Part shown: piece after piece, positions 15,921-20,434 of the stretch
How the letters are laid out: every line of letters begins with the position of its first letter
How positions within the stretch are numbered: the first letter of the stretch is position 1
IMG/VR virus record: IMGVR_UViG_3300035034_002581
Source of the DNA: a virus
Length of the DNA stretch: 64,000 nt
Direction: 5' to 3' (one strand)
Translations under genes and position numbers: made by a program
The notes under the pieces: generated by a model
The model's database searches: none
What the model saw: the letters and a program-made list of their open reading frames with translations, nothing else
What the model was told of the DNA's origin: nothing

Positions 15921-17858
15921 TTACGAATCACGCCAGAGGTTGTTTGCTGCGTAGGTCAGCACCTCTTCGGCACTTACTTCATTGTAGCCGTACTCTTCAA
16001 TGAGTGTCTTCACCATCTCATTGTACTTGCCCTTCTGCTCGTCGTCTCTGGTACGTGCCTTAGTCACAACACGTGCCATCTTGCGGACATTAGACATCAT
16101 GTAAGACTCGATAGCTTCCTTGAGAGGAGCGTAAGACGTGTAATCAACCGTTCCACCCTTTCTTACCGTGCGGAACATGTAGGAAGTTACATCCTGCCTG
16201 AATCCATCACGAGAGCTTCCTGTGATACCGATTTGCTCTTCGATAGATTGCATGAACTCTTCATCTGGGTAGCGCTCTTCTTTCGTAATGCTATCCTTGA
16301 GCATAATGTTGTTTGTATATGCCTCAGCGCTGTCAAGATACAACTCAAAGATATTCGCTGCATTCTCTTCAAATGCTGTGATGAAAGCCTTCGAGATTTC
16401 CTTTTCAAGCACACTTAGGTACTCTTCACGAATTGTCTTCTGAAGGAGACTTAGGTAACGTTCCTTGGATTCCTCGTTTGTGATTTGCTCCTTGACTTTT
16501 CGAATCATGGCATCAATTACGGAGATTGGTGTGATAACATCTTTGTCAGAAGTTGTCAAAGCGTCATCGATCGCCTTCATGATAAATCTAGTCGAAATAC
16601 CAGTCATACCCTCATTGTTAGCTTCTGCACGAAGATCCTTAATGTCAACCTTCTTGACATGCCCAGCCTCAATGACTTCTTCGCCATTGTAAAGCTTAAG
16701 CTTAGTCATTAGATCACACTTGTTACTTGGTGCAAGTCGCGTTAGAATCGAAAACATACTTGCAATTCTCAAAGTATGAGGTGCAATGTGTACGTCGAAG
16801 TCAGACTCTGCCATTCGCTTCTTGTAAATCTTGATCTCTTCATCGAGCTCAAGCACATATGGAACGTTGATCTTGACGATTCGGTCCATCACAGCTTCGT
16901 TTAAGTGATCTGACTTAAACTTGTTCCACTCTGCTTCGTTACAGTGTGATATGATAAACACATCATGATAAATCATGGGGTGCTTACCAGGTGCTGGAGA
17001 ATGCTTCTCCTGGGTAACTGTAATTGCTGGGTGGAGAAACTCAACTTCATTCTTAAAAATCTCTACGAATTCAACCAGACCTCTGTTTCCTACATTGAAA
17101 GCACCATTTAGAGACAAGATTCGAGGGTCGTCATCTGAATAGAGATCTAGCTTAGAAATGTCTTCCGAGCCGATCAAGATACTCACGTCCTGCGTGTTAG
17201 GATCAGTTGGAGGAACTACACCGACACCCTTTCGGCCTCGAGCAGAGAAGGATCCCTCAACTACCTCAAACTTTTCGTAGTCACCATCGTACTCTTCGAT
17301 TAGCTTCATTCTACAGATTGGGCACAAGTCTCCTTCGATATGAGCACCCAAAATCTCCTTGAATTCTGATCGTAAAGATCTAGGTACAAGGTGCAAAGGC
17401 TCCTCTCGGATTGGGCATCCCTTGAGGTAGTAATAAGGCTCGGCAGCTTCAAGTGCCTTCTTGACATGTTCTGTTAGCGCTGACTTACCCGCACCAACTG
17501 GTCCCATAAGCAAGAGAATCTGTCGACTCTCTTCTCCCTTTAGCGAGGCAGCCTTCAAGAACTTCATTAAGCGAGAAACTACTCTCTCGGCGCCATAAAA
17601 GTCCTTCTGGAAGAAGTCGTAAGTCTTTAACTTGTCCTCTTCGAAGAGCTTTCTAAATCTATCATTTGAGTCATCTAGCGTTTGAACGCCCTGAGACATA
17701 ATAGAATCATACACTCTGCTATGCGATAGCTTTGCGATGCGTGGATTCTCTTCAACAAGCTCAAGATATTCAATGAAGGTTCCTGACCACTTCTTGGCCT
17801 TTACCTTCTTCTTGTGCTTCTTAATAAGAGCAAGATAGTCTTTACGATTTGATGTCAT
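15921..17858 (-). CDS. prkA: PrkA-family serine protein kinase (YeaG-like, AAA+ N-terminal domain)
   Basis: 645 aa; P-loop LLLMGPVGAGKSALTEHVK and overall PrkA architecture. Confidence 0.8.
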   Translation of the reverse strand: MTSNRKDYLALIKKHKKKVKAKKWSGTFIEYLELVEENPRIAKLSHSRVYDSIMSQGVQTLDDSNDRFRKLFEEDKLKTYDFFQKDFYGAERVVSRLMKFLKAASLKGEESRQILLLMGPVGAGKSALTEHVKKALEAAEPYYYLKGCPIREEPLHLVPRSLRSEFKEILGAHIEGDLCPICRMKLIEEYDGDYEKFEVVEGSFSARGRKGVGVVPPTDPNTQDVSILIGSEDISKLDLYSDDDPRILSLNGAFNVGNRGLVEFVEIFKNEVEFLHPAITVTQEKHSPAPGKHPMIYHDVFIISHCNEAEWNKFKSDHLNEAVMDRIVKINVPYVLELDEEIKIYKKRMAESDFDVHIAPHTLRIASMFSILTRLAPSNKCDLMTKLKLYNGEEVIEAGHVKKVDIKDLRAEANNEGMTGISTRFIMKAIDDALTTSDKDVITPISVIDAMIRKVKEQITNEESKERYLSLLQKTIREEYLSVLEKEISKAFITAFEENAANIFELYLDSAEAYTNNIMLKDSITKEERYPDEEFMQSIEEQIGITGSSRDGFRQDVTSYMFRTVRKGGTVDYTSYAPLKEAIESYMMSNVRKMARVVTKARTRDDEQKGKYNEMVKTLIEEYGYNEVSAEEVLTYAANNLWRDS

Positions 17859-17913
17859 TTACTTTCTCCATTTCAATTTAATCTTACAAAGTAGTTCTAT
17901 ATGTGTTTCACAT

Positions 17914-19239
17914 TTAGATTTCAAAATCTTCACCATCTTCCGCAATTATCGTCATTAACTTAACTGAGTCCTCCCAAAGGTCTGCGATGTGCTTAACGAC
18001 TGTCTCTGCATAGTTTAAGTCGAGATCTCTTCCATCATGTTCATGACGAAGAATTAGTTCACCTCCTCTATTAGCACTTTCAACGTAAATGATAGGCATA
18101 TTGTTGATGCCGACAGTCTTAATAAGATCTTTTTGAATTTGCTTCCACCCTGGTTCATCTGGAACGTCGTCGATTGTAAAGATTTGCTCTGTCTTTGTTT
18201 CCTTCATTGAGAAAGAAAATAGACCTAAATCTCTACATGCTTTTTCGTCGATGAATTCTCTAATTGCTGATTCATCATTGTGAATTTCTCTAGCTAAGAA
18301 GCAAGCGTCAAGCCCTTGCTCTTCTTCTAGTCTCTTGAAAATATAGAATCCCATGTGATATGGATTAATCCTATCACCAAAAGGCCTTACAACTTGGTTG
18401 TGTGACTTTAAAAATGGGATGTGGTATTTGTCCGGTAGGTCGAGTTCATTCATCATCTTGTAGTGCCAAAAACTAGCCCAACCTTCATTCATGATCTTTG
18501 TTTTAATCTGTGGCATGAAGTAGACAGACTCTTCTCTGACAATTTCAATGATGTCTCTTTCCCATTCGTCTAAGTGCACACCATGCTCTACAATAAAGCC
18601 AAGAATGTCATAGTCAGGCTCGATAGGAACCTTATTGACGTCTACCCTGAATGGTGCATTTGACTTACTTGACTTAAGTCTCTTGATCCACATTTCTTTC
18701 TTTTCTTTGTGTGGAACTCTCTTTCTACCATATCGCTCTACATTGAAGCTAATTGCATGACATGCATCGAGAATCTTTTCAACTTTCTCAATTCCGATGC
18801 TTGGGTCTTCAATGTATTTTTGGATCCTCTTCTTTGCAGACCTCATCTTTGGAATTATACTGTCTGGCTTTGTATGGCCAAATGTTGAGTTATTCTTGAA
18901 GAAGTCACTATGTCCAACACAGTGAGCCATAATCAAGATCTGTAAATACATTGGGTTTTCGCGCATTAGATACGCAATACTCGGGTTTGAGTTAATAATT
19001 AGCTCATAAGGTAGACCAGACATACCCAAATTATACATCTGGTGGGTCCTCTCAAAGCTTTTTCCAAAACTCCAGTGGTGATAATGGCTAGGCATACCGT
19101 GATACGACATGTGGCCGATCATTTCGTAGTAATCACAGATTTCGTATACGATAGGGTGCCAATCTAGACCATAAGACTTCGCCATTGCTACAATCTTTTC
19201 GTCCCATTCGTTTAGCTCCTTAAAAGTCCAATCAGACAT
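17914..19239 (-). CDS. spoVR: SpoVR/YcgB-family protein
   Basis: Full-length similarity pattern to SpoVR (about 440 aa); likely start at MSDWTFKEL (ORF-track start at 19317 overlaps upstream gene). Confidence 0.75.
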   Translation of the reverse strand: MSDWTFKELNEWDEKIVAMAKSYGLDWHPIVYEICDYYEMIGHMSYHGMPSHYHHWSFGKSFERTHQMYNLGMSGLPYELIINSNPSIAYLMRENPMYLQILIMAHCVGHSDFFKNNSTFGHTKPDSIIPKMRSAKKRIQKYIEDPSIGIEKVEKILDACHAISFNVERYGRKRVPHKEKKEMWIKRLKSSKSNAPFRVDVNKVPIEPDYDILGFIVEHGVHLDEWERDIIEIVREESVYFMPQIKTKIMNEGWASFWHYKMMNELDLPDKYHIPFLKSHNQVVRPFGDRINPYHMGFYIFKRLEEEQGLDACFLAREIHNDESAIREFIDEKACRDLGLFSFSMKETKTEQIFTIDDVPDEPGWKQIQKDLIKTVGINNMPIIYVESANRGGELILRHEHDGRDLDLNYAETVVKHIADLWEDSVKLMTIIAEDGEDFEI

Positions 19240-20434
19240 CAGTCTTACCTCCGAAGATTTTGTTAAATACTGGCCAAATATCGTCCTTCCCGTTAATCTT
19301 GACAAGCTTAAAGGCATCGCCCGCGTATGGATGATATTTCTCCATCATAGTGCTCGAATTTGCAAAGTATCTATCCTCTTCTGTAGGTACGATTTCACAG
19401 TAGCAATACATTTGACAAAGTTCTTTTAGCTTAAGGGAAGAATCAATCGCCTTCTGGACGTCTTCACCCCAGTTGTCGCCGTCGCTCGCATGAAAAGTGT
19501 AAGAGTTCCATGTGTCTGTGTGATATCTGTCATCAATAATATCAATGACTTTGTCAAGTGCAGGAGAAATTGCAGTGCCGCCTGACTCAGCCCTATTAAA
19601 GAATTGATCTTCAGTGACTTCTTTCGCTGTAGTCGTATGTGAGATAAAGACAAGTTCAATCTTTTCATATCTGTAACGAAGAAACTGATACAAGAGAAAG
19701 TAGAAGCTTCTCGCCAGGTACTTCTTGTTTTTAGACATTGATCCTGAGACATCCATCACAAAGAAAACGACTGCGTTTGCAATTTCTCTTGGCTTAGAGT
19801 CAACATGACGGTATCTCATGTCATTTTCATTAAACGGGAATCGCTCTTCATCACTTTCAATCTGCCCAGTCCTCTTGGCAGCGGCTTTTCTCCGTAGGCG
19901 CCTAATCATTGTTTCTTTTTTGTCAAGCCTTGGGCGAATGCCTTGATTTCTATAACCCTTTCTCTTTGGCTTTTCATCAACAATGTTGCGAAACCTTTTC
20001 TTATCAAGCTCAGGAAGCTTTAGGTCGTCAAAAAGGTATTCGGCCAATTCTTTAAGCGTAATCTCTACCTCGTAGATCTCTTCGCCTTCTTTGTCGCCTG
20101 CCTTATCACCTTTTGCCTTTTGCTTTTTCTTACCTTTTCCGATTGTCTGCCCACGAGATTTATCGGTACCAGGTGAAGAACCTACTCTTTTGTTTTGGTT
20201 ATTGTCTCCGTAGATAAACCTGTATTCTTTGATTCCCTTGACAGGGATCTTAACTTTTGTTTTACCTTGCTTACCAATAATCGATTCATCGGCAATGATA
20301 TCGTGAATACCTTCTCTGATTGCCTTGTCAATCTTTTCTCTGTGACGAGTTCTATCTTGAGCGGATCTATCAGCGGATGTTTTGTGCTTTCTAAAAATCG
20401 ACATATATTTCTTCTTCTTATGGTGTTTATGCAA
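19232..20434 (-). CDS. yeaH: YeaH/YhbH-family DUF444 protein with C-terminal vWA-like domain
   Basis: 400 aa; basic N-terminal region and VFFVMDVSGSMS (vWA MIDAS-like DxSxS) motif; ordered yeaH-spoVR-prkA on the minus strand. Confidence 0.7.
   Translation of the reverse strand: MHKHHKKKKYMSIFRKHKTSADRSAQDRTRHREKIDKAIREGIHDIIADESIIGKQGKTKVKIPVKGIKEYRFIYGDNNQNKRVGSSPGTDKSRGQTIGKGKKKQKAKGDKAGDKEGEEIYEVEITLKELAEYLFDDLKLPELDKKRFRNIVDEKPKRKGYRNQGIRPRLDKKETMIRRLRRKAAAKRTGQIESDEERFPFNENDMRYRHVDSKPREIANAVVFFVMDVSGSMSKNKKYLARSFYFLLYQFLRYRYEKIELVFISHTTTAKEVTEDQFFNRAESGGTAISPALDKVIDIIDDRYHTDTWNSYTFHASDGDNWGEDVQKAIDSSLKLKELCQMYCYCEIVPTEEDRYFANSSTMMEKYHPYAGDAFKLVKINGKDDIWPVFNKIFGGKTDV

Follow-up and report, generated by a model that had tools for sequence, protein, structure and literature searches.

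An intact PrkA-YeaH-SpoVR cassette maintained by a clade of uncultured phages may set a starvation-type state in the host

What would a phage gain from carrying all three genes of the bacterial PrkA-YeaH-SpoVR module? The question is raised by a 64,000-nucleotide (nt) stretch of IMG/VR virus record IMGVR_UViG_3300035034_002581 (here called the window), in which yeaH, spoVR, and prkA lie one after another on the minus strand between positions 15921 and 20434. The bacterial module occurs in many phyla and has been linked to survival of starvation, to the lag before regrowth, to osmotic stress, and to sporulation; reports on its molecular function contradict one another. The bacterial trio is already known, and complete copies sit unremarked in deposited phage genomes. 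What is new is a large, monophyletic clade of uncultured phages that keeps a permuted cassette as a unit, together with evidence that big phages captured the trio repeatedly and independently, a correction of the "sporulation" label given to viral spoVR, and clues to the SpoVR core from its structure and from an intein. We favor, with moderate confidence, the explanation that this is an intact and selectively maintained phage-borne module that sets a starvation-type state in the host.

The three proteins are full-length members of their families. The first gene, yeaH (19232 to 20434, minus strand), encodes a DUF444/YhbH protein with a vWA domain. It starts at a TTG at 20434 (400 amino acids [aa]) or, more likely, at an ATG at 20404 (390 aa), and its relatives have 390 to 400 aa. 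The Pfam DUF444 model (PF04285) matched at 1e-113. VWA_CoxE matched weakly (6e-4), and cobaltochelatase matches were weak as well. The best NCBIfam model was spore_yhbH (TIGR02877; 2.5e-124), with 415 bits, which is under the 468-bit cutoff. The metal ion-dependent adhesion site (MIDAS) motif, D228-V-S-G-S232, is encoded at nt 19739 to 19753. The second gene, spoVR (SpoVR/YcgB; minus strand), occupies an open reading frame (ORF) at 17914 to 19317, of which 17914 to 19239 is the likely gene. The ATG at 19239 gives a protein of 441 aa, and the same start was called on an identical public contig. Pfam SpoVR (PF04293) matched at 4.1e-121 over model positions 1 to 405 of 407, and SpoVR_C (PF24755) matched at 7.8e-09.

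The last gene, prkA (15921 to 17858, minus strand), encodes a 645-aa PrkA/YeaG protein in which an AAA+ ATPase is followed by a kinase-like domain. Pfam AAA_PrkA (PF08298; 5.8e-137) covers residues 27 to 381 (model positions 2 to 357 of 358), and the PrkA C-terminal domain (PF06798; 3.7e-76) covers residues 384 to 636 (model positions 1 to 255 of 255). The P-loop, LLLMGPVGAGKS, is formed by residues 115 to 126 (nt 17481 to 17516), and a Lon-like P-loop region is present. Residues 17 to 640 match a solved structure, 9xip ("Serine protein kinase"), with an E value of 3.4e-104. Against NCBIfam PRK15455, the equivalog model of enterobacterial YeaG, the protein scored 368 bits, below the cutoff of 576. 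By these profile scores, the window PrkA is a member of the PrkA/YeaG family and is not an equivalog of enterobacterial YeaG. An earlier reading of the DNA letters alone (the sequence-only reading) had described a complete, consecutive, operon-like trio on the minus strand and had quoted the P-loop and a vWA DxSxS motif. The three ORFs lie exactly where it placed them, and the motifs are found at PrkA residues 115 to 126 and YeaH residues 228 to 232. Homology to generic AAA+ and vWA domains alone, which would have undone that description, does not account for the trio, because all matches are full-length and family specific, including those to the PrkA C-terminal domain and to SpoVR.

The genes are closely spaced. 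The spoVR ATG overlaps the yeaH stop codon by 8 nt (ATGTCTGA), and a GGAGG lies 8 nt 5' of this ATG. The 86-nt yeaH/spoVR overlap in the ORF list is only apparent, because the list takes the most upstream start codon. The gap between spoVR and prkA is 55 nt and includes a GGAG ribosome-binding site. RNA folding revealed an intrinsic terminator at 15868 to 15897 (minus strand), with a 10-bp GC-rich stem (GAGGGAGGAA / UUCCUCCCUU), a 5-nt loop, and a U-run. Its hairpin is 24 nt 3' of the prkA stop codon and has a folding free energy of -19 kcal/mol (z score, -4.21), which was matched by 0 of 200 shuffled sequences. The trio is thus laid out as a predicted operon, translationally coupled and with a strong terminator at its end. 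Consensus scans of positions 14000 to 24500 gave no excess over shuffled sequence, either for sigma-70 promoters (24 promoter-like sites versus 22.8) or for terminators (11 versus 7.6). Because the scan missed the real prkA hairpin, we drew no promoter inference from it.

Is this cassette peculiar to one contig? At least 149 IMG/VR contigs encode a PrkA relative, and we fetched 80 loci from them for the clade statistics. The order yeaH-spoVR-prkA, tightly packed, was found in 78 of the 80 loci, and the remaining 2 are truncated where their contigs end. Across these loci, the window proteins were matched at an identity of 60 to 65% for PrkA, 49 to 64% for SpoVR, and 49 to 61% for YeaH; for the flanking GroEL-like and Nudix genes it was just 23 to 43%. 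The mean pairwise identity within the clade was 68% for PrkA and 56% for both SpoVR and YeaH. The three proteins diverged together (distance-matrix r, 0.82 to 0.84; Mantel test, 0 of 500 permutations). Uncultured PrkA relatives at 63 to 83% identity are very numerous, and those examined share the neighborhood. As judged from these comparisons, the phage clade is maintaining the trio selectively, intact, and as one unit.

We also anchored the search on the helicase gene, which gave 188 IMG/VR relatives on contigs of up to 322 kb. In 80 scored loci, all three genes were within 10 kb of the helicase in 40, none was within 10 kb in the other 40, and a partial trio was seen in 0. One contig lacks the trio near its helicase (locus L201) and carries it about 120 kb away (locus L023). 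Therefore, "none nearby" does not equal absent, and an estimate of trio prevalence from the helicase-anchored loci was rejected for this reason.

We then took every residue with 95% or higher conservation among the cellular and other nonclade homologues. The phage clade kept all of these (80 in PrkA, 39 in SpoVR, and 29 in YeaH), the only exceptions being F82Y and K586Y in PrkA and V81I and V107C in SpoVR. The sequence-only reading had called for a check of the kinase catalytic residues of PrkA. The PrkA residues retained include Walker A G119, K125, and S126; E263/E266; and K428, which aligns with K426 of Escherichia coli YeaG. The whole Walker A stretch, G119-P-V-G-A-G-K125-S126, is invariant across the phage clade and the cellular homologues. 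The MIDAS residues of YeaH (D228, S230, S232, T287, and D318) are kept in both the clade and the cellular homologues, and SpoVR keeps H106-x3-H110, E154, N251-E252-G253, and H259. The retention of these highly conserved residues makes the trio proteins look functional.

To place the cassette among cellular relatives, we scanned one genome per GTDB species; the identities given here refer to the matches listed. The nearest cellular PrkA proteins among them were 52 to 59% identical to the window PrkA, with adjoining YeaH at 43 to 49% and SpoVR at 39 to 46%. On the Clostridia side, the matches listed came from Clostridium, Sarcina, Pelosinus, Dendrosporobacter, Cellulosilyticum, and Syntrophomonas. 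Others came from deltaproteobacterial, Binatia, Syntrophobacteraceae, Sneathiellales, and Bdellovibrionales metagenome-assembled genomes (MAGs). Bacillus and Paenibacillus PrkA were 38 to 39% identical to the window PrkA, and E. coli YeaG was 29 to 32% identical. The near cellular relatives among the matches listed all have the canonical order prkA-yeaH-spoVR, whereas the clade has yeaH-spoVR-prkA. Cellular operons with a 645-aa PrkA (for example, in Clostridium gallinarum, C. cavendishii, Pelosinus, Dendrosporobacter, Syntrophomonas, and deltaproteobacterial and Binatia MAGs) thus resemble the phage cassette in their full-length families, tight linkage, and common invariant residues. They differ in gene order, which is cyclically permuted in the phages, and the phage clade forms a monophyletic branch of its own.

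Simple distance trees (neighbor joining) recovered this branch in 30 of 30 bootstrap replicates for PrkA, 30 of 30 for SpoVR, and 26 of 30 for YeaH. The nearest cellular groups were identical for the three proteins. The sequence-only reading had looked to such phylogenies for a donor clade or host. They showed that each protein is monophyletic in the clade and shares its nearest cellular groups with the other two, and they stopped short of naming the donor lineage. The simplest reading of the trees and gene orders is that an ancestor captured the trio as a single block from a 645-aa-PrkA cellular lineage, that the order was cyclically permuted, and that the cassette was then inherited vertically.

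The clade is not alone in having acquired the trio. The Thermus phages phiYS40, TMA, phiLo, MN1, and Lalka carry yeaH-spoVR-prkA with a deep PrkA type of their own, at most 42% identical to anything sampled. The Ralstonia jumbo phage RsoM2USA has prkA-yeaH-spoVR with a YeaG-type PrkA (57% identical to E. coli YeaG), as do the huge phages LR745206 and LR756504 (64 to 67%). The huge phage LR756511 has the same canonical order with a Myxococcales/Planctomycetota-type PrkA (56 to 58%). The present clade, with its yeaH-spoVR-prkA order, has a Clostridia/delta-type PrkA (52 to 59%). The Thermus phages therefore share with the window a complete trio in the same permuted order, but they differ from it in sequence (about 21 to 33% identity), in their deep-branching PrkA subfamily, in their thermophile hosts, and in having the trio beside head or terminase genes. 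In phiYS40, there is also an extra ORF between spoVR and prkA. RsoM2USA, LR745206, LR756504, and LR756511 are, like the presumed source of the window, large phages with a complete trio, but their PrkA proteins are only about 30 to 33% identical to that of the window and their gene order is canonical. Because the phage PrkA proteins fall into at least four subfamilies, the comparison implies at least four independent captures of the trio, mostly by large phages.

In the deposited phage genomes, the trio genes are annotated as "serine kinase," "SpoVR," "AAA family ATPase," or "hypothetical." The literature found on phage-borne PrkA, SpoVR, and DUF444 consists of the RsoM2USA genome paper, which gives the genes in a list only, a Thermus genome paper, and a marine virome paper that treats spoVR as a sporulation gene. 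In it we found no description of the trio as a unit.

What the module might do in an infected cell can be approached from its bacterial counterparts. When E. coli is starved of nitrogen, YeaG and YeaH jointly bring its metabolism to quiescence, and the regrowth lag is set by how much of the two proteins is present (PMC10954441). Mutants survive long starvation more poorly and regrow faster, and excess YeaG lengthens the lag; RpoS and NtrC drive expression, and the small RNA (sRNA) SdsR damps it (PMC10954441). The K426A variant of YeaG is described as catalytically defective (PMC10954441). In six nonsporulating bacteria, yeaG, yeaH, and ycgB are cofit (bioRxiv 10.1101/072470). Bacillus PrkA is needed for normal sporulation and for osmotic tolerance, and prkA mutants of B. 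subtilis and B. anthracis are sporulation defective.

The phage proteins belong to the same three families as E. coli YeaG, YeaH, and YcgB, which are functionally coupled, and the residue mutated in K426A corresponds to K428 of the phage PrkA. However, in addition to the low PrkA identity (29 to 32%), the E. coli genes are split into yeaGH and ycgB operons under RpoS/NtrC/SdsR control, whereas the phage trio forms one operon that lies beyond such regulation. The Bacillus PrkA/YhbH/SpoVR trio shares the Walker A lysine (K108 in B. subtilis, equivalent to K125 within the phage GPVGAGKS), but its PrkA is about 38 to 39% identical, its sporulation phenotypes are host specific, and the phage data give no sign of a spore-forming host.

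We propose the following scenario. The three products would act together, as they do in bacteria. PrkA would be an AAA+ ATPase with a Lon-like P-loop and a kinase-like C-terminal domain, and YeaH would be its vWA/MIDAS partner, analogous to the MoxR-vWA and chelatase pairs. SpoVR would be a metal-binding component, with a fold that is perhaps zincin-like. Expressed from the phage genome, the module would escape host RpoS/NtrC/sRNA control. Over a long infection cycle, it would then impose or maintain a controlled, viable, starvation-type metabolism in infected cells that are short of nutrients. Its partners might be the adjacent genes for a putative (p)ppGpp-type HD hydrolase, a Nudix protein, and a nucleotidyltransferase, and the nearby PhoH gene. 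The preservation of the trio as an intact unit across the clade, the cellular-type residues, and the independent captures speak for joint action of the three proteins and for a benefit of the module in infection. It is plausible that the trio acts in host starvation or quiescence, whether it promotes that state or prevents it.

Several points weigh against this proposal. The activity of PrkA is contested: it is reported to be a kinase in E. coli and a Lon-like ATP-dependent protease, dependent on the Walker A lysine, in B. subtilis, and for B. anthracis PrkA the reported kinase and protease activities are negligible. Half of the helicase-anchored relatives have no trio within 10 kb, so some branches of the lineage may do without the module. 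The host could not be read from the MAG bin labels of relatives, a route that we rejected because the labels conflict (Thorarchaeota, Methylococcaceae, Halobacteriovorax, Nitrospinaceae, and "archaeon"). Finally, in Lalka27b, a nonjumbo Thermus phage of 69 kb, the trio (L173:3630-7848) lies between the portal/minor head genes and TerL. This location in a head morphogenesis and packaging module hints at a phage-intrinsic role there.

A phage-intrinsic role is the alternative that survives best, although we consider it unlikely. Here, the AAA+/vWA/SpoVR machine would act on phage proteins, for instance in the assembly of capsids or large complexes, in metal insertion, or in proteostasis of the huge proteome, rather than in host regulation. 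The phiYS40 trio, like that of Lalka27b, is close to a terminase gene. AAA+-vWA pairs (MoxR-vWA and the chelatases) are typically maturation or remodeling factors, and YeaH has the weak VWA_CoxE and cobaltochelatase matches described above. In most clade members, a divergent GroEL-like gene follows the trio. However, the clade cassette lies among tRNA, RNA repair, nucleotide, and alarmone-type genes and not among structural ones. Moreover, a PrkA that is 52 to 59% identical to cellular homologues and keeps their invariant residues suggests that the cellular activity and targets are retained.

It is less probable still that the trio serves in conflict, as a decoy or antagonist of a host growth arrest or defense-like system or in superinfection exclusion. 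AAA+/vWA architectures are common in nucleoside triphosphate-dependent conflict systems. The capture of the trio by at least four phage lineages independently is a pattern shared with counterdefense genes, and E. coli regrows later when YeaG is overproduced (PMC10954441). However, PADLOC gave only marginal generic P-loop matches for PrkA (E values of at least 4.4e-4) and none for SpoVR or YeaH. The retained invariant residues argue against an inactive decoy, and the literature that we searched held no report tying the module to phage defense.

The sequence-only reading had suggested that the phage reprograms a host dormancy or stress decision, for example by blocking or forcing sporulation or persistence. 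As a general idea this is plausible; its sporulation part is treated here. In that explanation, a phage of an endospore former would force, block, or time sporulation or spore cortex formation through the trio. The sporulation defects of the B. subtilis and B. anthracis prkA mutants are in line with it. So are the best NCBIfam model for YeaH, which is the Firmicute spore_yhbH (although under its cutoff), and the presence of Clostridium, Sarcina, Pelosinus, and Syntrophomonas among the nearest cellular PrkA sources listed. A marine virome study found spoVR to be the most abundant "sporulation" auxiliary gene in an oxygen minimum zone and read it as inducing sporulation (PMC8940887). However, equally near matches listed come from MAGs of nonsporulating deltaproteobacterial, Binatia, Sneathiellales, and Bdellovibrionales lineages, and Bacillus and Paenibacillus PrkA are far less similar (38 to 39%). 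Many bacteria that form no spores at all have the trio as a unit (bioRxiv 10.1101/072470), relatives are present in Tara Oceans data, and none of the ORFs scanned in the window matched a dedicated sporulation family. On this evidence, sporulation control is very unlikely, and that part of the sequence-only reading is not supported.

It is barely credible that the trio is simply a bacterial operon on cellular DNA or on a chimerically assembled contig. In favor of this reading, profile matches found no virion structural gene in the 64-kb window (the main caveat on the word phage), relatives turn up in MAG bins (one is a 305,838-bp contig labeled Methylococcaceae TMED69), and a sugar-nucleotide/glycosyltransferase cluster adjoins the window. 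Against it, the relatives (at least 149 PrkA anchored and 188 helicase anchored) are viral contigs in IMG/VR with lengths reaching 322 kb, about 39 tRNAs and a transfer-messenger RNA (tmRNA) lie on one strand, no ribosomal or other housekeeping family was found among the ORFs scanned in the window, helicase, PhoH, and RtcB match phage protein families over their full lengths, the clade is monophyletic and has a permutation of the gene order that all near cellular homologues listed share, and the MAG labels are mutually inconsistent.

The source is a large, uncultured, and probably marine phage, and the phage setting assumed at the outset is supported by the IMG/VR contigs, the tRNA array, and the PHROG matches. 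All genes of the window are on one strand. ARAGORN found 38 tRNA genes and Rfam 1 more; every one is encoded on the minus strand, and the set serves most amino acids (28312 to 39838, 14359 to 14435, and 15646 to 15815). A standard tmRNA is at 9071 to 9438 (minus strand; Rfam RF00023, 119.8 bits), with the ARAGORN tag peptide ANNNSHFQTALAA. The PHROG matches include the helicase (6e-112), PhoH (5e-96), RtcB, and others. By helicase protein, the closest cultured phages are the jumbo Tunturiibacter phage Tunturi_5 (36%) and Bacillus phage G (32%). Neither the trio region nor window positions 40000 to 64000 had a megablast match among 50,697 phage records, so a close cultured relative is absent from these deposited phages. 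The protein encoded at 61162 to 61713 had no exact match on record. The window is 100% identical to IMGVR_UViG_3300035698_022074 over the shared part, and Tara Oceans catalogue entries are among its relatives. The contig labeled Methylococcaceae bacterium TMED69 (NHDW01000006.1; 305,838 bp) has the phage cassette order, phage neighbors, and a PrkA at 63% identity; it is probably a near-complete genome of the phage clade that was misbinned into a MAG.

Four genes lie immediately 5' of the trio on the minus strand. They encode a 454-aa protein with an HD_4 (SpoT/Mesh1-type) hydrolase domain (22420 to 23784; Pfam HD_4, 4.1e-7; PHROG 990 phosphohydrolase, 1.5e-25), a CTP_transf_like and cupin protein (21534 to 22418; Pfam CTP_transf_like, MannoseP_isomer, and Cupin_2), a Nudix hydrolase (20967 to 21521; Pfam NUDIX, 2e-11), and a hydrophobic ORF product of 165 aa (20473 to 20970; ORF call). 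These genes (20473 to 23784) are codirectional with the trio, have gaps of 1 to 68 nt, and recur as neighbors in diverged relatives. Because they are so tightly packed, the trio may be the distal part of a longer transcription unit with them. The HD_4 protein contains ...ITHPVRV... and LHDAIED, which we take to be SpoT/Mesh1-type motifs, and is a putative hydrolase of (p)ppGpp or another alarmone. Its HD_4 domain is N-terminal and is followed by a long C-terminal extension; the gene is near the trio in several diverged relatives.

On the other side, two tRNA genes follow the terminator. A tRNA-Arg(CCT) lies directly past it (15741 to 15815, minus strand; ARAGORN and Rfam RF00005), and a 90-nt tRNA (15646 to 15735, minus strand) was found by Rfam RF00005 only and missed by ARAGORN. 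Their RF00005 scores are 68.6 and 42.7 bits. The divergent GroEL-like ORF (12929 to 14317, minus strand; 462 aa) matches PHROG 5725 "chaperonin groEL" at 1.2e-12 and has no Pfam match. Most clade members have it downstream of the trio, including those in which the helicase is found elsewhere, and it is 23 to 37% identical clade-wide.

Other features of the window are as follows. RNA repair genes are at 41984 to 43225, 46674 to 48485, and 58796 to 59824 (minus strand): an RtcB ligase (Pfam, 2.4e-129), a nucleotidyltransferase fusion, and an RNA ligase. The fusion joins a CCA-adding/poly(A) polymerase-type nucleotidyltransferase to the HAD_SAK_1 "Swiss Army Knife" RNA repair domain. Relatives additionally encode Thg1 and PTH2. 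Between blocks of the tRNA array, an 892-aa ORF (33631 to 36309, minus strand) matches the Pfam Major Vault Protein shoulder (1.4e-26) and the Vault_3 repeat (2.2e-10), and a vault protein-like gene is unusual in a phage. A 72-aa ORF (9474 to 9692, minus strand) is helicase adjacent in relatives; on the identical public contig, Pfam matches it to Hc1, a chlamydial histone-like protein. A large sugar-nucleotide/glycosyltransferase cluster spans window positions 195 to 4577 (minus strand) and, beyond the window start, L169:10882-20885. It contains GT2 and GT4 glycosyltransferases, UDP-glucose/GDP-mannose dehydrogenase, epimerases, and a GFO/IDH/MocA oxidoreductase. Together with a eukaryotic-type phosphomannomutase (25517 to 26482), it suggests phage-encoded glycan synthesis. 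G+C content is 46 to 50% at 56001 to 64000 versus 38 to 41% over most of the window, and this end may be a different genome module or acquired DNA.

We return to the trio itself and to what its SpoVR may contribute. An AlphaFold2 model of SpoVR had a predicted local distance difference test score of 78 and a predicted template modeling score of 0.80. The invariant motif H106-(C/V)-x-G-H110 does not have the catalytic Glu of HExxH, there being no Glu at position 107. The conserved E154 and E252 (the latter in NEGWA) are candidate third metal ligands. Foldseek and profile searches gave no confirmation of similarity to zincins, and a zincin-like metal-binding subunit is a tentative assignment for SpoVR. 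In one relative (L067:3255-5816; IMGVR_UViG_3300006802_020762), spoVR is split by an intein (Pfam Intein_splicing and LAGLIDADG_3). The insertion is right behind the invariant NEGWA (N251 to A255, window numbering) and ahead of S-x-x-H259. Inteins are usually inserted at functionally critical conserved sites, so an intein beside NEGWA marks the likely functional core of SpoVR. The intein position and the possible zincin-like fold are both pointers to that core.

The weak CoxE- and chelatase-type matches of YeaH, together with its MIDAS, make the PrkA-YeaH pair resemble AAA+/vWA remodeling systems. The comparison with MoxR-vWA (CoxD-CoxE), the Mg/Co chelatases, and FtsH (AAA+/zincin) is an analogy only; a significant sequence relationship is absent. 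A more daring extension of the starvation proposal, which we regard as rather doubtful, is that PrkA, YeaH, and SpoVR form one ATP-driven remodeling or proteolytic machine, built from an AAA+ motor, an adaptor with a vWA/MIDAS domain, and a metal subunit of zincin-like type. This machine would be a master switch of quiescence and would for that reason have been captured at least four times.

For the interpretation of viral genes, the cassette corrects the practice, in work on marine viromes, of counting viral spoVR among the "sporulation" auxiliary genes. The phage trios are also compact, self-contained operons suited to heterologous tests. If the machine proposal is true, a switch supplied by the phage would hold a starved cell productive, in a nondormant or controlled-dormant condition. 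In that case, the phage copies would amount to naturally occurring gain-of-function alleles, from which the role of the bacterial module could be learned.

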